Below are positions 4,237-52,123 of a stretch of DNA of 64,000 nucleotides, in pieces; the stretch's first letter is position 1; the number at the start of each line of letters is the position of its first letter. Location of the stretch: the IMG/VR virus record IMGVR_UViG_2609460060_000003, positions 31,136 through 95,135 of that record; one strand, written 5' to 3'. Both the position numbers and the translations under genes were made by a program. The stretch is from a virus. Taxonomy: Duplodnaviria; Heunggongvirae; Uroviricota; Caudoviricetes. The notes under the pieces were generated by a model. That model was given only the letters and a program-made list of their open reading frames with translations. It was not told the origin of the DNA and did no database searches.

Positions 4237-5826
4237 TTACTTAATAAGCAGCGGTACGCCCTGGATACGACGGGCTACGCCAGTCGGGCAGCAGGCCCAG
4301 ACTACTTCCCATTTATCGAATTCCGCCTGCGTAACTTTCAGCACATACGGTTCTGTACCGTCAGCATCAGGATCACGAGGAGCCACCAGAGCGCCGGAGG
4401 CGACAAAGCGATCTAAAAGTTTGGTCATCCCTTTAGTCAGGCCAGCCGCAGTAATACCGTCCGGGCTATGCTTCATCTGTCGGGCTAACTGGACAAAGAA
4501 ACGGCTGATTGCATTCATCAGGGATGGGACGTGCTGGAAGTGCAGATAGTTATCCTGCGTGCAGCAAGTTAAAGCATCGTCGATGATCATCTGGCCAGAG
4601 GTGCCAACAGATACTTTATTGAGACGGCCCTTGACCATTGCTTCTTCGTCCGGGGTATCTTCCGGATACAGCGGTTGAATTGACGCACGAGCAATGACGG
4701 CACGTTCTTCACCAGCCGGTGAGTAATGCCAACCGCCGACATCAGAGTTTTTCTTGACGCCATGAGCTTTCGCCGCATACGCCACGCCAGACAGACCAAA
4801 GACCACACGGGATTGGGTCCATTTGTCTTTGCAGGAGAACGGGTAGTGATAGACAGAACAGCTTACATAATCGGTACCAAGTAAACCGGTACCCTCAACA
4901 GCTGTTAGTGCTTCTGCGTACCTTAATGTCGGTTTGACATCAAAGAAGCCATCAATCAGGCGATCTGCACAGATTTTACCTAATGCGGTGATAGCCGCAT
5001 TGTCATAGCAGCCCAGGCCAAGAACAGCGGTGTACATGTACGGCGCATTGTTCAGCACTTTCACCGCACGCAGGTACGCAGCGGTTGAGATTTTCGACTG
5101 ATCACCGTTGGTACCACCAGTGAACGCCAACGATTTTTTGTTTGTTACTTTCGCTGTAGAAATCAGATCTTCATTAACAACCGCGCGCAGATATTTAGAA
5201 CGAGCTTCCAGAGCCGTAGGCAGATAACACAAGCGGCCCATGTCATCTTTCGCTTCTTCCGCCAAAGACACAGTGTGTGTCTCCAGGGTCGTTACCACAC
5301 CAAGCGAAGTCGTCTGGGTCAGTTTTAAGATGAAGCGTTCATTACTCGCGCTGTCCGCTGTTGCCGTTTCGATGGTTAACTCACGGGTAGGTGAAATACA
5401 CGGATCACCATCATCAACGTAGATAGCAAAGGCTTCGCCGCTATCAAGTTCAATTTCAGAACCGTATGGCAACGCACTGTAAGCCGGTTCGCCTGATTCA
5501 TCGAACATAATAATCGGGAACTTCGCATCATCCGGAACAGCACGGACAACATAACCAGACGTTTGCTGAATAGCTTCGTACACATGGCGAATTGGTTCGA
5601 ACTGTGAGCCGGAAGACGGCTTCAGCGGTTCGCCGAGAACATCTTCGTAATTGGACTCAGTAACCGCCAGAACAGTAAACGGCTTGCCACGCGCAAATAC
5701 GCCAATACCAGCCCACAAGCTGCTATTTAATGCAACACCGGTAGATAACGTCGCATCGGCATTGATCGGGCTAACCGCGACGCCGGATGCATTACCTAAT
5801 GACTGTTGAATTGAATATTGAGACAT
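4237..5826 (-). CDS. tail sheath protein (P1 gene 22 position)
   Basis: 529-aa ORF between major head gene and tube genes; size and position as expected for a myovirus sheath. Confidence 0.5.
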   Translation of the reverse strand: MSQYSIQQSLGNASGVAVSPINADATLSTGVALNSSLWAGIGVFARGKPFTVLAVTESNYEDVLGEPLKPSSGSQFEPIRHVYEAIQQTSGYVVRAVPDDAKFPIIMFDESGEPAYSALPYGSEIELDSGEAFAIYVDDGDPCISPTRELTIETATADSASNERFILKLTQTTSLGVVTTLETHTVSLAEEAKDDMGRLCYLPTALEARSKYLRAVVNEDLISTAKVTNKKSLAFTGGTNGDQSKISTAAYLRAVKVLNNAPYMYTAVLGLGCYDNAAITALGKICADRLIDGFFDVKPTLRYAEALTAVEGTGLLGTDYVSCSVYHYPFSCKDKWTQSRVVFGLSGVAYAAKAHGVKKNSDVGGWHYSPAGEERAVIARASIQPLYPEDTPDEEAMVKGRLNKVSVGTSGQMIIDDALTCCTQDNYLHFQHVPSLMNAISRFFVQLARQMKHSPDGITAAGLTKGMTKLLDRFVASGALVAPRDPDADGTEPYVLKVTQAEFDKWEVVWACCPTGVARRIQGVPLLIK

Positions 5827-5886
5827 AACTTTCCCTGTTATGCGCCCCGCACGGGGGCGCTATGTTAAACGGAGAACTTCCCCTGA

Positions 5887-7614
5887 TTACTCAGAGTCAC
5901 CGGCATCAATCGTGTCGCCGCTTATGAAGTTAAGCCCGCCTTTTTTGGCCATTGTCAGCGTTACACGAGTGAAGTAATCAGCGCCGTTGCGTGGGTGCAT
6001 ATCGTTGATAGCCGAACCCCACAGCGTGGTACGGTTGACCAGCGCCGGAGTGGTCGGATGCTGGAACGGGATGGCCGGGACAGCATCACCAGTCACGAAG
6101 CCTGCTTTACCCGGATTTTCATCACGGACGTAGCACAGCACATCCATCGAGCTGAACTGAATGTTCTCTGTCGTTAAGTTCTTACAAATACCAGCAGGTA
6201 CTTCGTACACTTTCACGTTACCGAACAGGGTACCGATGTAGTGAACATACGGAGTCTGGATATAGTCTTCGGCTGGCTGGAAGAAATCCTTCGGCAACTG
6301 TTTGAAGAAAGATGCTGCATCAGCACCAGCAAACATCCCCATCGCACCAGAAGATTTAACGCGCTCAATAATGTCGCGATATACAGTCTGGAATTTGCCA
6401 CGAATGATGGTTGCCCATACATCAAAGGACTGGTTAACCGGCAGAGCGATGTCAAAGGTGTCGGTCGCAAGAGTACGCCAGATCATGATGCGAAGACGCA
6501 GCATATCCTGTTCATGAGACAGGTATTCCTTCAGGGTGCGGAACTGTAGGGAACCCAGGTCCAGACCAAATTCACGCTGTGCTTCATACGCCGCCTGTAC
6601 CGTGTGCTCAGCCGCGATAACGAACTGGCTTGGGAACAGGGTGTATTTCTTCATTTCGTGGTTGATCAGCGGGATCAGCTCAGGAGCGGCTTCAATATTG
6701 ATTTCCGTCTCAATTGCGATCTCAGTGCCTTTATCCGGCGCTTTGGAGAACGACAGGGCAATCTGACCAATGTTGTAGTTCAGAGAGCAGGTAACAGTGA
6801 TTTGCTCACCAGCAGCATTAGTAAACGAGTGAAGTAGGCTGCCGGAACCGTTATCAACAACAGACTTAATACGGTTAACGTAGATATTAGTGCGACCTTT
6901 TCGGATTGGTACATTCTGGCCTTCGAAGTCTTCCATCTTGAAGGTTGCGGTTTTGCTGGTGCCATCGGAGCTTGCCACCAGCACATAGCGGCGGCGTAAC
7001 TGGCTGTACACACCGACGGATTGCATGTCCAGAACATCACCAGCAGCATAAGAACCAAAAGAGGAACCTGCCACGTTAAAGACTTCATAGATGTCGGACT
7101 GGTCACGCGTAACCGGAATGAAGGTACACGCATCAGCGGTAGCTGCCCCCAACTGAACAGGCAGGATCATCGCGAGGAATAAAGGCAGACGCATAACACC
7201 GTCAGAAACGCTCATCATCTCTGCTGCGACGGATTCCAGCATCGCTTTATTAGTGGCATCCATGCTATTGCGGGTGGACTCAATCAGGCAGTTTTCCAGC
7301 GTCTGGTGGCAGGAGGCCAGAATTTCCGGACGCGGCATAGATTTATGTGCTGCGGCGTAGTCAGCCAGTGCACTTGCCCACGCTGTAGCGATTTGAGCGG
7401 TGGCATTATCAGAGATACCCGCAAAAACCGGGTCTTTACGTGCAGCTTCAAGGATAGATGCGGCACGCGCGGCATCATCTTTAATGAATTGGTTATCAGT
7501 ACCGAACTGCGCAGTGCTTGCCCAGCCAAGCACAGCTTTAGAGCGTTTTGCGATATCTGCAATACGATTCTGGTATTCGCGTAAGTTACTCAATTTACTC
7601 TTCCTTAAACACAA
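5887..7614 (-). CDS. major head protein (P1 gene 23 position)
   Basis: 575-aa ORF next to parB, first gene of the operon, preceded by late-promoter-like element. Confidence 0.5.
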   Translation of the reverse strand: MCLRKSKLSNLREYQNRIADIAKRSKAVLGWASTAQFGTDNQFIKDDAARAASILEAARKDPVFAGISDNATAQIATAWASALADYAAAHKSMPRPEILASCHQTLENCLIESTRNSMDATNKAMLESVAAEMMSVSDGVMRLPLFLAMILPVQLGAATADACTFIPVTRDQSDIYEVFNVAGSSFGSYAAGDVLDMQSVGVYSQLRRRYVLVASSDGTSKTATFKMEDFEGQNVPIRKGRTNIYVNRIKSVVDNGSGSLLHSFTNAAGEQITVTCSLNYNIGQIALSFSKAPDKGTEIAIETEINIEAAPELIPLINHEMKKYTLFPSQFVIAAEHTVQAAYEAQREFGLDLGSLQFRTLKEYLSHEQDMLRLRIMIWRTLATDTFDIALPVNQSFDVWATIIRGKFQTVYRDIIERVKSSGAMGMFAGADAASFFKQLPKDFFQPAEDYIQTPYVHYIGTLFGNVKVYEVPAGICKNLTTENIQFSSMDVLCYVRDENPGKAGFVTGDAVPAIPFQHPTTPALVNRTTLWGSAINDMHPRNGADYFTRVTLTMAKKGGLNFISGDTIDAGDSE

Positions 7615-14718: not shown

Positions 14719-14735
14719 ATTGCTCTAATAAATAT
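14719..14735 (+). promoter_or_regulatory. C1 operator-like site
   Basis: ATTGCTCTAATAAATAT, 16/17 to recalled C1 operator consensus ATTGCTCTAATAAATTT; upstream of uhr-hrdC-dmt. Confidence 0.55.
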
Positions 14736-44075: not shown

Positions 44076-44092
44076 ATTGCTCTAATGTATTG
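44076..44092 (+). promoter_or_regulatory. C1 operator-like site upstream of lpa
   Basis: ATTGCTCTAATGTATTG, 14/17 to consensus. Confidence 0.5.
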
Positions 44093-44701: not shown

Positions 44702-45895
44702 GTGACCTGGGACGATCACAAGAAGAATTTTGCTCGCCTGGCGCGAGATGGTGGTTACACCATCGCACAATATGCCGCCGAGTTTAATCTCAACCCAAAC
44801 ACCGCACGTCGTTATCTCCGTGCATTCAAAGAAGACACCGGAACAGCGGACAGCCGTAAGCCAAATAAGCCTGTCAGAAAACCACTAAAAAGCATGATCA
44901 TTGATCACGCTAATGATCAACGTGCAGGTGATCACATTGTGGCTGAAATGGCTGAAAAACAAAGAGTTAATGCTGTTGTCAGTGCCGCAGTCGAGAACGC
45001 GAAGCGCCAGAATAAGCGCATAAATGATCGTTCTGATGATCATGACGTGATCACCCGCGCCCACCGGACCTTACGTGATCGCCTGGAACGCGACACCCTG
45101 GATGATGATGGTGAACGCTTTGAATTCGAAGCTGGCGATTACCTGATAGATAACGTTGAAGCGCGGAAGGCCGCGCGCGCTATGTTGCGTCGGTCCGGGG
45201 CTGATGTTCTGGAAACCACTCTTCTGGAAAAGTCTCTCTCTCATCTCCTTATGCTGGAGAACGCCAGGGATACGTGTATTCGCTTGGTTCAGGAAATGCG
45301 CGATCAGCAAAAAGACGATGATGAAGGAACTCCGCCTGAATACCGTATCGCGAGCATGCTAAACAGCTGTTCCGCGCAGATAAGCAGCCTGATCAACACC
45401 ATTTACAGCATCCGGAATAACTATCGAAAAGAAAGCCGGGAGGCGGAAAAGCACGCTTTGTCTATGGGGCAAGCTGGCATTGTTAAGCTGGCATACGAAC
45501 GAAAGCGTGAAAACAACTGGTCAGTGCTGGAGGCAGCTGAATTCATCGAGGCGCATGGAGGGAAAGTACCGCCCCTGATGCTGGAGCAAATCAAAGCCGA
45601 TCTGCGTGCTCCTAAGACCAATACCGATGATGAGGAAAGGCAAACAGCCGTCGGTGGCCCTTCTCTTGAAGATCTGGACAAAGTTGCGCGAGAACGGGCC
45701 GCCAACCGCCGCGCCGATGCCGCATTGTGGATTGAGCAGCGTAGGGAAGAAATCGCCGATATCGTTGATACAGGCGGTTATGGAGATGTTGATACTGAAG
45801 GTGTATCAAACGACCCATGGCTGGAACAAGACCTGGACGAAGACGAGGAGGAAGACGAAGAAGTTACCCGCAAGCTATACGGGGATGATGATTAA
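44702..45895 (+). CDS. pacA: PacA terminase subunit
   Basis: 397 aa (GTG start after AAGGAAG); contains the pac hexamer clusters; acidic C-terminus. Confidence 0.8.
44895..45053. other. pac: pac packaging site
   Basis: Four TGATCA at 44895-44934 and three TGATC(A/G) at 45025-45053 flanking a ~90-bp segment, inside pacA. Confidence 0.8.
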
Positions 45896-47379
45896 TGGCC
45901 AGAAGTTGCGTAACGGACCCACGTTGGCGCGAGCTGGTGGCGCTATATCGTTATGACTGGATTGCGGCCGCTGATGTGTTGTTTGGGAAGACACCAACCT
46001 GGCAGCAGGATGAGATCATTGAGTCCACGCAGCAGGACGGCAGTTGGACAAGTGTGACCTCCGGCCATGGTACTGGTAAATCGGATATGACGAGTATCAT
46101 TGCAATACTCTTCATCATGTTTTTCCCCGGCGCTCGCGTCATTCTGGTCGCTAACAAAAGACAGCAAGTCCTTGATGGTATTTTCAAATACATAAAGAGC
46201 AATTGGGCTACTGCTGTTAGCAGATTCCCGTGGTTGTCGAAGTATTTCATTCTTACAGAAACGTCTTTTTTTGAGGTGACTGGCAAGGGTGTTTGGACAA
46301 TATTGATAAAGTCCTGTCGCCCCGGAAATGAGGAGGCGTTGGCTGGTGAACACGCCGATCATCTCTTGTATATCATCGACGAAGCGTCGGGTGTGAGTGA
46401 TAAAGCATTCAGTGTGATAACAGGTGCGCTGACCGGTAAGGATAACCGTATTCTGCTTCTTTCCCAGCCTACGCGACCTTCAGGCTATTTCTACGATTCA
46501 CACCACAGACTAGCTATTCGCCCGGGAAATCCTGATGGATTGTTTACTGCGATAATACTGAATAGTGAAGAATCTCCGCTTGTAGATGCAAAATTTATAC
46601 GAGCAAAACTTGCGGAGTATGGCGGTCGTGATAACCCCATGTACATGATCAAAGTACGTGGTGAATTTCCCAAATCTCAAGATGGCTTTCTTCTTGGTCG
46701 TGATGAGGTTGAGCGGGCGACGCGGCGAAAGGTCAAGATTGCCAAAGGATGGGGCTGGGTTGCATGTGTTGACGTTGCTGGTGGCACAGGACGAGATAAG
46801 TCCGTTATTAATATCATGATGGTGTCCGGCCAGCGAAATAAACGCCGTGTAATCAACTATCGTATGCTGGAATACACAGACGTTACAGAAACGCAGCTTG
46901 CCGCCAAAATTTTCGCAGAATGTAATCCTGAGCGATTCCCAAATATCACCATAGCGATAGACGGCGATGGGCTGGGTAAAGCAACAGCGGATCTGATGTA
47001 CGAGTATTATGGTATTACCGTACAGCGTATACGCTGGGGTAAAAAGATGCATAGCCGTGAAGATAAGAGCCTGTACTTTGATAAACGTGCTTATGCCAAT
47101 GTTCAAGCCGCAGAGGCCGTAAAATCTGGTCGTATGAGACTGGATAAGGGTAATGAAACTATTGAGGAAGCGTCGAAAATCCCTGTAGGGATTAACTCCG
47201 CAGGTCAATGGAAGGTGATGAGTAAGGAGGATATGAAGAAAAAACTCAACCTGCACTCACCAGACCATTGGGATACATATTGTTTCGCTATGCTGGCGGA
47301 TTATGTTCCCCAGGATGAAGTGCTTAGCGTCGAAGACGAAGCGCAGGTTGATGAAGCTCTGGCATGGCTTAATGAATGA
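45895..47379 (+). CDS. pacB: PacB terminase subunit
   Basis: 494 aa, start overlapping pacA stop. Confidence 0.8.
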
Positions 47380-47382
47380 ACA

Positions 47383-47399
47383 TTTGCTCTAATGAATTG
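47383..47399 (+). promoter_or_regulatory. C1 operator-like site
   Basis: TTTGCTCTAATGAATTG, 14/17; precedes the icd/ant leader. Confidence 0.5.
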
Positions 47400-47530
47400 T
47401 GTTTTTTAACTACCGATGTTACATTGAACCTGACCTCTTGCGCCTTGAGGCATTTTCGGTTTATGCTTATCAGGCACCTCATTAAAACGGGTGCCGGGAT
47501 TGGCCTCCCGCTTAAGTCTAAGGCGATACA

Positions 47531-47552
47531 GACGCCGCTCGCGTCTTTTTTT
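47531..47552 (+). terminator. hairpin with T-tract in icd/ant leader
   Basis: GACGC-CGCTC-GCGTC followed by TTTTTTT. Confidence 0.4.
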
Positions 47553-47717
47553 GTATCGGCGTACACGCACACCTCTACAATGGTGGGCTGTATGGGGCTA
47601 CCTTCGGGTAGGCTGGTTACCTTGGACGCCAGTAAGGCCAACTCCGTACAGTCCACCGCCAGCAAGATTGGTCTCTTCTGCGGTGGTTACATACCAACGT
47701 CTAAGGAGGCTGCCAAT

Positions 47718-47939
47718 ATGGCTACTATCCCTACCCCAACTCATCCTGAATTTATCTGGCGCTTTTACTCCTGCCAAAAACGTCACTATCACTTCGTTAT
47801 TGCACCAACAGAAGATGAGGCCCGCTCTCAGCTTCCTGACGCCCCATGTATTTTCTCTGCCCGTTTTTCCACTGATTCACGCAATTCTCTCAGTTACTGG
47901 TGCCTCCCTGTTAACGCTTCTGCTCAGGAGGGACTATGA
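47718..47939 (+). CDS. icd: Icd-like small protein
   Basis: ATG at 47718 after TAAGGAGG; 73 aa; stop overlaps ant start (ATGA). Confidence 0.5.
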   Translation: MATIPTPTHPEFIWRFYSCQKRHYHFVIAPTEDEARSQLPDAPCIFSARFSTDSRNSLSYWCLPVNASAQEGL

Positions 47940-49054
47940 GAACGTCATTAGTCACCCGTGAAGAAATGATTGAGGCAATTGAACAGCACACATCCTGTAT
48001 CAGTACCAGGGATATACCGGGCGTTATTGCCAACTACTTCATGATCACCAAACAACTTTACCGGAGAAAGGACAAGAACGCTGTTCACCGCATTCTGTTG
48101 TCTGATATCCGCGAATACCTGCTCGAACAGGGGCATCTGAATTACGCAACCGTCGCAGCCGAAACACGCAAGGAGGCACACAGAATGAAAGCAACTAACG
48201 TTAAATCAGAAAAAACTCATGCACCTTCAGTTCAGGAATCGGAGCTGGTGGTTGTTCAGAATCAGTCTGATGAAATTCCCGTTCTGGAATGGCAGGGAGC
48301 GCGTGTAGTGACAACCGAGACTCTTGCTAGAGGGTATGGGACAGAAACAATCCGTATTCGCCAAAATCATCATGAGAACAAAGTACGCTTTGTTGAAGGG
48401 AAGCACTTTTTCAAAGTTGAAGGAGAATCATTGCGCGAGTTGAAGCACAGAGTAGCTTTAAACTACTCTGTAAAAATTGCTCGCAATGTTCGCTCACTCA
48501 CCCTCTGGACAGAACGCGGCGCAGCCCGCCACGCTAAAATGCTCGAAACCGATCAGGCATGGGCATTCTTTGAAAAACTGGAAGACAGCTACTTCCGACA
48601 AAAAGAACAGCAACCGATCGCAATCCCCCAGACGCTTCCTGAAGCCCTACGCCTGGCTGCCGAACTGGCTGAACAAAAGCAGCTTCTGGAACAGAAAGCC
48701 CACCAGCTAAATCAGCAGCTGGTGGCCGCCGCTCCTAAAGTCGATTTTGCCGACCGGGTATCAGTAGCTAAAGGGATCCTGATTGGGAATTTTGCAAAGG
48801 TTGTTGGACTTAAGCAAAACGCGCTGTTTGCCTGGTTACGGGAGAACGGCATCCTGATAGCGTCCGGTGGACGTAAAAATGTGCCGTTCCAGCAGTACAT
48901 CAACGCGGGGTATTTCACGGTGAAAGAAGTGGTGCTGGATGATGAAGATGGCTACCAGATACGGTTGACGCCTCAATTAACGGGTAAAGGCCAGCAGTGG
49001 TTGACGCGTAAACTGCTCGATGCTGGCTTGTTAAAACCGGTGGCGGCTGAATAA
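47936..49054 (+). CDS. antirepressor (Ant-like, KilAC C-terminal domain)
   Basis: 372 aa; C-terminal ~150 aa paralogous to the kilA product at window start (shared PEALRLAAxLAEQKQ, NGILIA, LTGKGQQWL). Confidence 0.6.
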   Translation: MRTSLVTREEMIEAIEQHTSCISTRDIPGVIANYFMITKQLYRRKDKNAVHRILLSDIREYLLEQGHLNYATVAAETRKEAHRMKATNVKSEKTHAPSVQESELVVVQNQSDEIPVLEWQGARVVTTETLARGYGTETIRIRQNHHENKVRFVEGKHFFKVEGESLRELKHRVALNYSVKIARNVRSLTLWTERGAARHAKMLETDQAWAFFEKLEDSYFRQKEQQPIAIPQTLPEALRLAAELAEQKQLLEQKAHQLNQQLVAAAPKVDFADRVSVAKGILIGNFAKVVGLKQNALFAWLRENGILIASGGRKNVPFQQYINAGYFTVKEVVLDDEDGYQIRLTPQLTGKGQQWLTRKLLDAGLLKPVAAE

Positions 49055-49062
49055 TGGAAGAA

Positions 49063-49084
49063 TGCCCGGTTGATGCCGGGCATA
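49063..49084. terminator. bidirectional hairpin between convergent ant and c1
   Basis: ATGCCCGG-ttgatg-CCGGGCAT. Confidence 0.55.
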
Positions 49085-49086
49085 AT

Positions 49087-49938
49087 TTATTGCGCGCTTT
49101 CGGGGTTGTCGTTTACTGGCTGCCCCTTCTTGGTTTTACGGCTGCGCGTAACTGATGCGGCTGACTTAACCTTTTTCTCTTCGCGAGTGATGGCAATTTG
49201 TTTTTTTACATTTTCAATATCTGCCAGGCGATATATTTTTGCTTGCGGCCAGCGGTCGCAGATGATCGGTTCTATGGAGTCATAAAGGCTAAATTTTGCT
49301 TTTTCGAATTCACCGTTGATGATAATTCCATCACGGAGAGTTTCATCGCAGATAAACACGCCACACAGTGGCACATGGTAACTAACTGATTTACCATCAT
49401 TGTAGTTAGGGCTACTGGAAATGTAGTGGACGCGCAGCATTGTTTCGCTAAAGCCGTGTACGCGCATACGGAATTTTTCATCCTCCGGGTACTGCTTCAT
49501 TAGCTCTTTTGTTGCTTCCAGGTTCTCTATGTATTTCGCACTGTGCTCATTGATCCCCGCGCTTTTTTGGATGCGAATGTCCTTATCAATCAGATGAATA
49601 ATGCGGCCAGCGGTCATGTTGACGCTGTTCACAGCCTCTGTCTGATAAGTTGTAACCTTACGCACACCGCGAAGGATGTTAGGCACTGGATATAAAATAG
49701 TCTTTGGGATATTGAGGTCTGGGTACTGTTCCAGTTCCCGCGCCATTAAAGTCCATTTATCAATTTCAGCCTGAATACTGTCCGTTTCTTTGAACGGCAG
49801 AACGACAACCGGGCGAACAGGACGACCGTCGCTGGCGGCATCAACGTGTTGGGCGCGTGCAACAGCTTTTTTTAGAAAGAGATCCCTGAAGCTGACGAAC
49901 TCCTGGTACAGTTGTTCGCCGTAGACATAATTTATCAT
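49087..49938 (-). CDS. c1: C1 prophage repressor
   Basis: 283 aa, N-terminus MINYVYGEQLYQEFVSFRDLF matches recalled P1 C1; operator sites across the window. Confidence 0.9.
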   Translation of the reverse strand: MINYVYGEQLYQEFVSFRDLFLKKAVARAQHVDAASDGRPVRPVVVLPFKETDSIQAEIDKWTLMARELEQYPDLNIPKTILYPVPNILRGVRKVTTYQTEAVNSVNMTAGRIIHLIDKDIRIQKSAGINEHSAKYIENLEATKELMKQYPEDEKFRMRVHGFSETMLRVHYISSSPNYNDGKSVSYHVPLCGVFICDETLRDGIIINGEFEKAKFSLYDSIEPIICDRWPQAKIYRLADIENVKKQIAITREEKKVKSAASVTRSRKTKKGQPVNDNPESAQ

Positions 49939-50048: not shown

Positions 50049-50258
50049 TTATTGTGAGTCTAACTGGTTGGTTGCCATGAGATATTCGATTGTGTCAGTG
50101 AGGTCATCCAGGTCGTCTTGGGTGATGCGGTACTCCTGATTGGATATCTTTGAGTAGTGTTCAGCAATGGCGCGGGCAGCGTCGGTTTCGGCAGGGTCTA
50201 CAGATAAAGCGTTAGAGCAATGTCTAACGTCGTCGATGGTTGGTTGAATGAAAGCCAT
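50049..50258 (-). CDS. coi: C1 inactivator
   Basis: 69-aa ORF directly upstream of c1, same strand. Confidence 0.75.
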   Translation of the reverse strand: MAFIQPTIDDVRHCSNALSVDPAETDAARAIAEHYSKISNQEYRITQDDLDDLTDTIEYLMATNQLDSQ

Positions 50259-51091: not shown

Positions 51092-52123
51092 ATGTCCAAT
51101 TTACTGACCGTACACCAAAATTTGCCTGCATTACCGGTCGATGCAACGAGTGATGAGGTTCGCAAGAACCTGATGGACATGTTCAGGGATCGCCAGGCGT
51201 TTTCTGAGCATACCTGGAAAATGCTTCTGTCCGTTTGCCGGTCGTGGGCGGCATGGTGTAAGTTGAATAACCGGAAATGGTTTCCCGCAGAACCTGAAGA
51301 TGTTCGCGATTATCTTCTATATCTTCAGGCGCGCGGTCTGGCAGTAAAAACTATCCAGCAACATTTGGGCCAGCTAAACATGCTTCATCGTCGGTCCGGG
51401 CTGCCACGACCAAGTGACAGCAATGCTGTTTCACTGGTCATGCGACGGATCCGAAAAGAAAACGTTGATGCCGGTGAGCGTGCAAAACAGGCGCTGGCGT
51501 TCGAACGCACTGATTTCGACCTGGTTCGTTCACTCATGGAAAATAGTGAGCGCTGCCAGGATATACGTAATCTGGCATTTCTGGGGATTGCTTATAACAC
51601 CCTGTTACGTATAGCCGAAATTGCCAGGATCAGGGTTAAAGATATCTCACGTACTGACGGTGGGAGAATGTTAATCCATATTGGCAGAACGAAAACGCTG
51701 GTTAGCACCGCAGGTGTAGAGAAGGCACTTAGCCTGGGGGTAACTAAACTGGTCGAGCGATGGATTTCCGTCTCTGGTGTAGCTGATGATCCGAATAACT
51801 ACCTGTTTTGCCGGGTCAGAAAAAATGGTGTTGCCGCGCCATCTGCCACCAGCCAGCTATCAACTCGCGCCCTGGAAGGGATTTTTGAAGCAACTCATCG
51901 ATTGATTTACGGCGCTAAGGATGACTCTGGTCAGAGATACCTGGCCTGGTCTGGACACAGTGCCCGTGTCGGAGCCGCGCGAGATATGGCCCGCGCTGGA
52001 GTTTCAATACCGGAGATCATGCAAGCTGGTGGCTGGACCAATGTAAATATTGTCATGAACTATATCCGTAACCTGGATAGTGAAACAGGGGCAATGGTGC
52101 GCCTGCTGGAAGATGGCGATTAG
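51092..52123 (+). CDS. cre: Cre tyrosine recombinase
   Basis: 343 aa, MSNLLTVHQNLPALPVDATSDEVRKNLMDMF... matches recalled P1 Cre; loxP 419 bp upstream. Confidence 0.97.
   Translation: MSNLLTVHQNLPALPVDATSDEVRKNLMDMFRDRQAFSEHTWKMLLSVCRSWAAWCKLNNRKWFPAEPEDVRDYLLYLQARGLAVKTIQQHLGQLNMLHRRSGLPRPSDSNAVSLVMRRIRKENVDAGERAKQALAFERTDFDLVRSLMENSERCQDIRNLAFLGIAYNTLLRIAEIARIRVKDISRTDGGRMLIHIGRTKTLVSTAGVEKALSLGVTKLVERWISVSGVADDPNNYLFCRVRKNGVAAPSATSQLSTRALEGIFEATHRLIYGAKDDSGQRYLAWSGHSARVGAARDMARAGVSIPEIMQAGGWTNVNIVMNYIRNLDSETGAMVRLLEDGD

Follow-up and report, generated by a model that had tools for sequence, protein, structure and literature searches.

Organization of the Module Between pacB and c1

The sequence analyzed here is a 64,000-nucleotide stretch (the window) of the virus record IMGVR_UViG_2609460060_000003, which consists of P1-like phage-plasmid DNA. 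Between pacB and c1, the gene for the main repressor, a series of elements was recognized in the following order: a C1 operator-like site, two predicted promoters, an IsrK-family RNA with the elements a1 and b1, a C4 antisense RNA, icd, and ant1/ant2. These are parts known from the immI immunity region of P1. It is likely, with a probability of about 0.75 as judged from the sequence, that positions 47383-49083 represent a complete immI-type operon, which occupies the place of the 24-bp spacer between pacB and c1 in canonical P1. The elements are listed below with their positions in the window.

47383-47399, plus strand: C1 operator-like site TTTGCTCTAATGAATTG, overlapping the -35 hexamer of the upstream promoter; the counterpart of P1 Oc4 (formerly Op51)
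47397-47425, plus strand: predicted weak sigma-70 promoter, TTGTGT-17 nt-TACATT, aligned to P1 P2c4 (formerly P51a; TTGTAT-17 nt-TATCTT)
47438-47467, plus strand: predicted promoter of the small-RNA transcript, TTGCGC-18 nt-TATGCT, aligned to P1 P1c4 (formerly P51b)
47474-47552, plus strand: IsrK-family small RNA or leader segment, carrying a1 and b1 and ending in an intrinsic terminator
47500-47506, plus strand: a1, TTGGCCT, in the IsrK-like RNA
47516-47523, plus strand: b1, GTCTAAGG, in the IsrK-like RNA
47576-47663, plus strand: C4 antisense RNA gene (RF01695)
47620-47627, plus strand: b', CCUUGGAC, in the 10-nt loop of the second C4 hairpin
47635-47641, plus strand: a', AGGCCAA, in the unpaired stretch 3' of the second C4 hairpin
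47668-47709, plus strand: target region in the icd-ant mRNA, read from the sequence
47668-47674, plus strand: a2, TTGGTCT, target in the icd-ant mRNA, directly after C4
47699-47706, plus strand: b2, GTCTAAGG, overlapping the icd Shine-Dalgarno sequence AAGGAGG (47703-47709)
47718-47939, plus strand: icd homolog, 73 aa (NF033153 phage_ICD_like of NCBIfam, E = 2.6e-13)
47936-49054, plus strand: Ant1/Ant2-type antirepressor gene, 372 aa (BLASTP, Pfam)
49062-49083: GC-rich hairpin of 9 pairs between the convergent ant and c1 (terminator scan)

Leader RNAs and Their Pairing Elements

The whole window was scanned with Rfam at gathering thresholds, and two plus-strand matches were found in the leader, isrK followed by C4. 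The isrK match (RF01394) spans 47474-47551 and covers model positions 1-77 of 77; its score of 60.8 bits is above the gathering score of 50. For C4 (RF01695), positions 1-87 of 87 are covered with 75.9 bits (gathering score 45, E = 4.7e-13). The IsrK-like segment ends in an intrinsic terminator, identified with a terminator scan as a stem at 47530-47546 followed by T7. Alignment with the annotated 77-nt P1 C4 predicts the mature C4 at 47582-47657, about 76 nt long. The minimum-free-energy fold of C4 (-41.6 kcal/mol, z = -3.5) has the structure of the family and leaves both a' and b' unpaired. The consensus fold from an alignment of 8 relatives contains 28 pairs, 12 of which show compensatory changes.

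The octamer GTCTAAGG occurs exactly twice in the 64 kb, as b1 and as b2. By count alone this is insignificant, as at least two copies were seen in 29 of 100 shuffles. It is the two Rfam matches above the gathering scores, together with the concerted change of the six pairing elements described below, that place the module above chance. Between CCTTGGAC (47620-47627) and GUCUAAGG, 7 Watson-Crick pairs and 1 G-U wobble can be formed. The presence of a1 and a2, the partners of a', completes the full P1 design: a1/b1 upstream, C4 with a'/b', and a2/b2 with b2 on the icd Shine-Dalgarno sequence.

Much of this organization had been proposed in a first-pass annotation of the letters alone. The operator-like site, the two octamer copies, and the hairpin with its T-tract were all found where it had placed them, and the 73-codon open reading frame (ORF) with a strong Shine-Dalgarno sequence and an ATGA overlap with a 372-aa antirepressor-like gene turned out to have icd and ant homology, respectively. 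Its suggestion of a c4-type antisense control of icd/ant is supported by the C4 and isrK matches and by the position of b2. The 8-nt complement at 47620-47627 is present and able to pair, but is not exact because of the wobble. The a1/a'/a2 elements, the second promoter, and the internal Ant2-type start were additional to that description.

The icd and ant Genes

The icd homolog starts with ATG at 47718, with AAGGAGG 8 nt upstream, and 54 of its 73 residues (74%) are identical to P1 Icd. The icd stop codon and the ant start codon overlap in ATGA at 47936-47939. By BLASTP, Ant is 56% identical to P1 Ant1 overall, with an unrelated middle; the N-terminal ~84 aa are ~65% identical and the C-terminal ~140 aa ~93% identical, as estimated by eye from the alignment. 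The P1 Ant1-like N-terminus is followed by an ORF6N domain (aa 116-202) and a KilAC domain (aa 260-361) in Pfam, and the P1 Ant has no ORF6N. An internal ATG at 48185 (codon 84) is accompanied by a Shine-Dalgarno sequence AAGGAGG and preceded by AAGGAGGCACACAGA, and an Ant2-like product is predicted from it. In P1, ant2 likewise starts at codon 84, and its start context is nearly base-identical to this one. The conserved internal start indicates that the nested Ant1/Ant2 arrangement is probably retained. The protein would be an antirepressor directed against C1.

In the plasmids NZ_CP059910.1 and NZ_OX442409.1, which are 100% identical in this region, RefSeq/PGAP breaks ant up into an ORF6N pseudogene labeled "incomplete" and a 110-aa KilAC protein. 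The frame is open over 372 codons in these plasmids despite the split annotation. The full 372-aa Ant is annotated in pCREC463-2 (98.7% identical DNA), and it differs from the protein of the window at 5 of 372 residues.

Operator and Promoters

The operator-like site TTTGCTCTAATGAATTG differs from the consensus of the P1 C1 operators, ATTGCTCTAATAAATTT, at 3 positions. Sites with at most 3 mismatches number 15 in the window against 0.33 expected. At the same position most sister plasmids have TTTGCTCTAATAAATTG, with 2 mismatches, and p7_55_62A has the 3-mismatch form of the window. The predicted operator aligns with P1 Oc4 and is retained in all nine pacB-c1 modules compared. The operator/promoter segment is exclusive to the P1-like copies, and is missing upstream of the homologous leaders of D6 and Stx phages.

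The upstream promoter matches the consensus hexamers at 7 of 12 positions, the same count as for the mapped P1 promoter. The downstream promoter, TTGCGC-18-TATGCT, also aligns with promoter-like hexamers before the isrK-type RNA of D6 and of an Stx phage, and its -10 hexamer ends 7 nt ahead of the start of the Rfam isrK model (47474).

Other C1 operator-like sites in the window include those at 14719, 18565/18576, 28530, 32155/32204, 34296, 44076, 50033, 50497, 50580, 52618, and 62941. The site at 44076-44092 is directly upstream of an lpa-like ORF. A further site at 46591-46607 on the minus strand lies within pacB and may be a chance match.

Specificity Types of the Antisense RNA

The pairing codes of nine pacB-c1 modules were compared with those of D6, an Stx phage, P1, and a P7-like immI. 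The nine modules fall into four RNA specificity types.

Type 1 (window, 673R5, pCREC463-2): a1/a'/a2 TTGGCCT/AGGCCAA/TTGGTCT (a2 is TTGGTTCT in pCREC463-2); b1 and b2/b' GTCTAAGG/CCTTGGAC
Type 2 (RCS47, pFXCREC123-5): a1/a'/a2 TTGAGAC/GTCTCAA/TTGAGAC; b1 and b2/b' GTCAAAGG/CCTTTGAC
Type 3, the D6 code (JL22, p7_55_62A-3, pCTX_B2_4): a1/a'/a2 TTGAGAC/GTCTCAA/TTGAGAC; b1 and b2/b' GCAAAAGG/CCTTTTGC
Type 4 (p79-13-647b): a1/a'/a2 TTGGAAC/GTTCCAA/TTGGAAC; b1 and b2/b' GCAAAAGG/CCTTTTGC

From type to type, a1/a'/a2 as a set, or b1/b'/b2 as a set, vary in concert. That they do so speaks strongly, on comparative grounds, for selection acting on the RNA pairings. The cognate duplex energies across the types range from -8.4 to -9.3 kcal/mol for the a elements and from -11 to -14 kcal/mol for the b elements, and the matrix of energies is strongly diagonal. 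The cognate duplexes of the window with a2 and b2 have -8.6 and -13.9 kcal/mol, respectively, while the window C4 against P1- and P7-type targets, and the reverse combinations, give about 0 to -6 kcal/mol. All four types are predicted to be orthogonal to the P1- and P7-type C4. The b code of the window (GUCUAAGG/CCUUGGAC) was not found in the D6, Stx-phage, or P4-like leaders compared.

An isrK-C4 leader was also seen in P4-like integrated elements, which carry AlpA, primase, and Icd-like genes, in the chromosomes of E. coli AR_0085 (2470-2830 of the compared stretch) and W284. These chromosomal elements have the a set and the C4 stem of the window, but the b set of the Stx phage F039. The a and b elements thus assort independently, and each seems to be traded separately among mobile elements of very different kinds. 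One Stx-phage record annotates both isrK and C4 in the related leader.

In the record of vB_EcoM-673R5 (ON470615.2), c1 is annotated as three short coding sequences (5811-6634) and ant (4635-5408) is shortened to 774 nt. Compared with the window, its leader also lacks two single bases, which fall in homopolymer-like runs. These anomalies in c1, ant, and the leader are probably sequencing frameshifts and not biology.

An Additional Copy of Mosaic Composition

In canonical P1, the stop codons of pacB and c1 are separated by 24 bp, and no module lies between them. Had P1 carried the same module, it would have been part of the backbone, a refutation that the first-pass annotation had itself considered and that fails here. 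The immC records of P7 and phiW39 match only the flanks, and the homology to P1 stops at or beside the pacB and c1 stop codons. The map position of immI is between sim and kilA-repL, and the module does not lie there. The plasmids NZ_OX442409 and NZ_MW390536 contain a 100% identical module, and they also have the regular c4-a1b1/C4/icd/ant/kilA/repL region at its usual place. As both coexist in these plasmids, the pacB-c1 copy is extra and not relocated.

The window start cuts kilA, which encodes KilA-N and KilAC domains, and repL is next downstream. The regular immI of this genome would therefore lie just beyond the left edge. A KilAC-domain gene in front of repL had already been pointed out at this edge; the gene is there, and it is not a separate paralog but the truncated kilA.

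A duplicated or relocated immunity module had been considered in the same annotation, and neither description applies. Relocation is ruled out by the coexistence of the two copies. Simple duplication of immI is ruled out as well, since nucleotide similarity to the P1/P7 immI is limited to the last ~335 bp of ant (86%) and the leader belongs to another Rfam family. In its sequence the module is a mosaic, composed of a P1-like operator/promoter segment, a leader like those of D6, Stx phages, and P4-like elements, and an Ant with an ORF6N middle. A transposon-like insertion is unsupported: the junctions coincide with or adjoin the stop codons of pacB and c1, and no flanking repeats were seen by eye, no repeat search having been made.

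The hairpin at 49062-49083 is probably a terminator that would serve both ant and c1. The 24-bp spacer of P1 (2208-2231 of the compared P1 stretch) contains CCATGCCGGATGG, which resembles part of this hairpin (ATGCCCGGTTGATGCCGGGCAT). The likeness may be a trace of a module loss that gave the P1 arrangement, or a coincidence.

Relationship to Known Systems

The module and the P1/P7 immI share the order of parts, a C1 operator (predicted in the module) over the upstream promoter, the C4 fold with exposed a' and b', a1/b1 upstream and a2/b2 over the icd ribosome-binding site, the icd-ant ATGA overlap, the Icd sequence, a nesting of ant1/ant2 (predicted in the module) with the same codon-84 start, and a nearly identical KilAC part of Ant. 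They differ in the locus, which is pacB-c1 for the module and sim-kilA for the P1 immI, and in the upstream RNA, which belongs to the isrK family in the module and is c4-a1b1 in P1. The module also has another a/b code, the ORF6N middle of Ant, and coexistence with a regular immI.

The leaders of D6, Stx phages, and P4-like elements are 69-88% identical in nucleotide sequence to that of the module from the isrK-type promoter to the start of icd or the corresponding ORF, and the JL22-type copy of the module has the D6 a/b code. In contrast to the module, those leaders are without the upstream C1 operator/promoter segment. The downstream genes differ too: the D6 antirepressor is unrelated, and Stx phages have Rha-type regulators at this place. 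A D6-type antirepressor was ruled out for the module, as BLASTP revealed no similarity although the leader is D6-like.

A described counterpart is the "ant" insertion of RCS47 and pTZ20_1P (Venturini 2019, PMC6906374). It is at the same pacB-c1 locus and has the same gene set. RCS47, where ant is annotated at the site, can be aligned to 92% of the query with 93.5% identity. The RNA code of RCS47 is type 2, while that of the window is type 1.

Proposed Regulation and Points Against It

The regulation of the module is proposed by homology with the P1 immI, whose features were taken from the feature table of NC_005856 and whose prototype mechanism has been reviewed (PMC8546580, PMC12197685). Transcription would start from the P51b-aligned promoter and from the weaker upstream promoter, with the downstream promoter supplying C4. 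Since the C1 operator overlaps the -35 hexamer of the upstream promoter, C1 would damp the operon in a lysogen. Some transcripts would end at the IsrK terminator, and those reading through would contain C4. C4 would be excised as a stable RNA of ~76 nt, presumably by RNase P, which makes the cut in P1.

The a' and b' elements of C4 have the potential to pair with a2 and b2, and this pairing is expected to be repressive. As b2 covers the icd ribosome-binding site, translation of icd would be blocked, and that of the ATGA-coupled ant1/ant2 would be blocked too. If the operon entered a cell that has no cognate C4, or if C4 failed to keep pace with transcription, both Icd and the Ant1/Ant2-like proteins would be produced, and Ant would then inactivate C1. 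The a1/b1 elements on the short IsrK-like RNA could bind C4, and may serve to buffer or titrate it, or as a decoy. Because the code is predicted to be orthogonal to that of the regular immI C4 of sister plasmids, the host element would have two independent antisense locks and two antirepressors. Two locks could widen both the range of incoming relatives that are silenced and the range of resident prophages that are overridden.

Several points weigh against this interpretation. The operator has 3 mismatches, and its binding by C1 is predicted. A scan with the promoter consensus revealed no plus-strand promoter in the leader, and both promoters are weak by consensus; the promoter calls thus rest on alignment with equally weak mapped P1 promoters. 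One G-U pair in b'-b1/b2 and one in a'-a2 make the pairing slightly weaker than full complementarity would. The middle third of Ant, with ORF6N, is absent from P1 Ant, and thus the target could differ. The regular immI of this very genome is expected from its close relatives, as the window excludes that region. The transcripts, the processing of C4, the binding of C1 to the operator, and the binding of Ant to C1 are all predictions. Finally, the Gifsy-1 IsrK locus of Salmonella is an activator and not a simple repressor (Hershko-Shalev 2016, PMC4825925).

Alternative Interpretations

The last point leads to the possibility that a Gifsy-1-type logic dominates. The IsrK-like RNA would then switch on translation of the downstream genes by acting in trans, with either the read-through transcript or C4 as its target, so that the module would be mainly an inducer circuit in which C4 is secondary, and less an immunity lock. 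In the isrK-orf45(STnc1160)-anrP locus of Gifsy-1 (PMC4825925), as in the module, IsrK with a terminator is followed by a read-through C4/CI-like RNA and then by a translationally coupled antirepressor-like gene, and IsrK activates this gene, AnrP, by way of an ORF located upstream and overlapping the C4-like STnc1160. The upstream element of the module also belongs to the isrK family rather than to the P1-type c4-a1b1, has its own terminator, and is complementary to C4 through a1 and b1 (-11.3 and -12.4 kcal/mol). Gifsy-1, however, has no icd, and coupling there is performed by the small ORF overlapping the C4-like RNA. The module has a real icd with its own strong Shine-Dalgarno sequence under b2, which is the direct-repression layout of P1, and its a2/b2 co-vary with a'/b' as a1/b1 do. 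The Gifsy-1 locus is also without a P1 C1 operator, and its demonstrated output is the activation of AnrP and then AntQ. Activation in trans of translation from its own read-through mRNA, and binding to Hfq, are known for the IsrK of Gifsy-1 only (PMC4825925). Dominance of the activating logic is thus considered unlikely, and the two logics are compatible, as IsrK could be a decoy for C4.

A second alternative concerns the target of the Ant-like protein. It may aim not at C1 but at another repressor, such as that of a co-resident lambdoid or P4-like element, or be a "Roi"-type DNA-binding regulator, and the module would then be a cross-talk device. The ORF6N domain absent from P1 Ant is in line with this idea, as are some records that annotate the gene as Roi, a DNA-binding protein, and the leader, whose closest relatives are in Stx phages, D6, and chromosomal P4-like elements. 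The two ends of Ant, on the other hand, are homologous to P1 Ant1 at the identities given above, and the internal Ant2 start is retained. Moreover, the C1 operator is upstream in the P1-like copies only, and the module always adjoins c1. A target other than C1 is therefore regarded as rather improbable.

It is very improbable that the leader encodes an Ash-family protein (PF10554) and that the RNA matches are incidental. The translation of 47478-47754 on the plus strand matches Pfam Phage_ASH (E = 2e-11), PGAP places an "ash family protein" over the leader in sister plasmids, and the equivalent orf45 of Gifsy-1 was reported to be translated (PMC4825925). The frame is nevertheless not conserved. 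In the window it continues into icd without a shift, in pCREC463 it has a +1 insertion, and in 673R5 it is interrupted by the two single-base deletions. In types 2-4 only a 39-codon ORF is present over C4, and the ATG at 47579 has no Shine-Dalgarno sequence. The variation of the leader obeys the rules of RNA pairing, and in the part of PMC12197685 that cites the Gifsy-1 study, orf45 is described as conserved in nucleotides and variable in amino acids. The Ash protein family looks like the translation of a conserved RNA locus, equivalent to Gifsy-1 orf45.

An inert, hitch-hiking remnant is hardly credible: canonical P1 and P7 do without the module, the operator of the window has one mismatch more than most sister copies, and PGAP fragments ant in identical plasmids, but both ORFs are intact, with Ant nearly unchanged relative to the pCREC463-2 protein, the RNA elements co-vary across types, and the module is present in hundreds of plasmids.

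Prevalence and Possible Meaning of the Module

At a query coverage of at least 80%, the module was found in 268 plasmids of PLSDB and in 250 of 5426 complete E. coli genomes. About one-third of the P1-like plasmids matched in PLSDB carry it. Venturini 2019 (PMC6906374) mentioned the insertion in one sentence, as two short hypothetical ORFs and ant, and did not discuss the RNAs, the operator, or the specificity. In the open-access literature, no paper was found that describes the specificity types or that treats the insertion as a full second operon of the immI type with a C1 operator of its own. Thus, the insertion is known and common, while its recognition as a putative full immI-type operon, and the specificity types, appear to be new within the open-access literature searched.

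The immunity of P1 is taught as tripartite, with immC, immI, and immT. The module is real and probably functional. A further-reaching proposal is offered tentatively, at somewhat less than even odds: P1-like phage-plasmids could have in it a working fourth immunity region, where another C4 keeps another antirepressor of C1 in check, and its two short recognition elements could be exchanged in varying combinations with D6, Stx phages, and P4-like satellites as well as among P1-like plasmids. It would then depend on the RNA code whether co-circulating P1-like plasmids, many of which carry resistance genes, and perhaps unrelated prophages, coexist with, exclude, or induce each other. An active module would change the predictions of heteroimmunity, superinfection exclusion, and cross-induction among the P1-like phage-plasmids that spread extended-spectrum beta-lactamase (ESBL) and other resistance genes. 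The types would also constitute a natural set of orthogonal antisense/target pairs. For annotation, it is relevant that pipelines take the RNA leader for an "ash family protein" and in some cases break up the intact ant.

Flanking Genes and Other Features of the Window

The genes around the module are as follows.

44702-45895: pacA
45895-47379: pacB, packaging gene
49087-49938, minus strand: c1, main repressor gene, with its stop codon at 49087
50049-50258, minus strand: coi
51092-52123: cre

Just downstream of repL, a sok antisense RNA (RF01794, 114 bits) was found at 1833-2007 on the plus strand, with a hok toxin gene at ~2000-2160. Canonical P1 has rlfA/rlfB at this position. The hok/sok pair is a plasmid addiction module, and lies here in the lytic-replicon region. 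A tRNA cluster at 19248-21007 on the plus strand consists of four matches; three are strong, with 65-76 bits, and the fourth, at 19328-19411, scores lower, with 41.9 bits.

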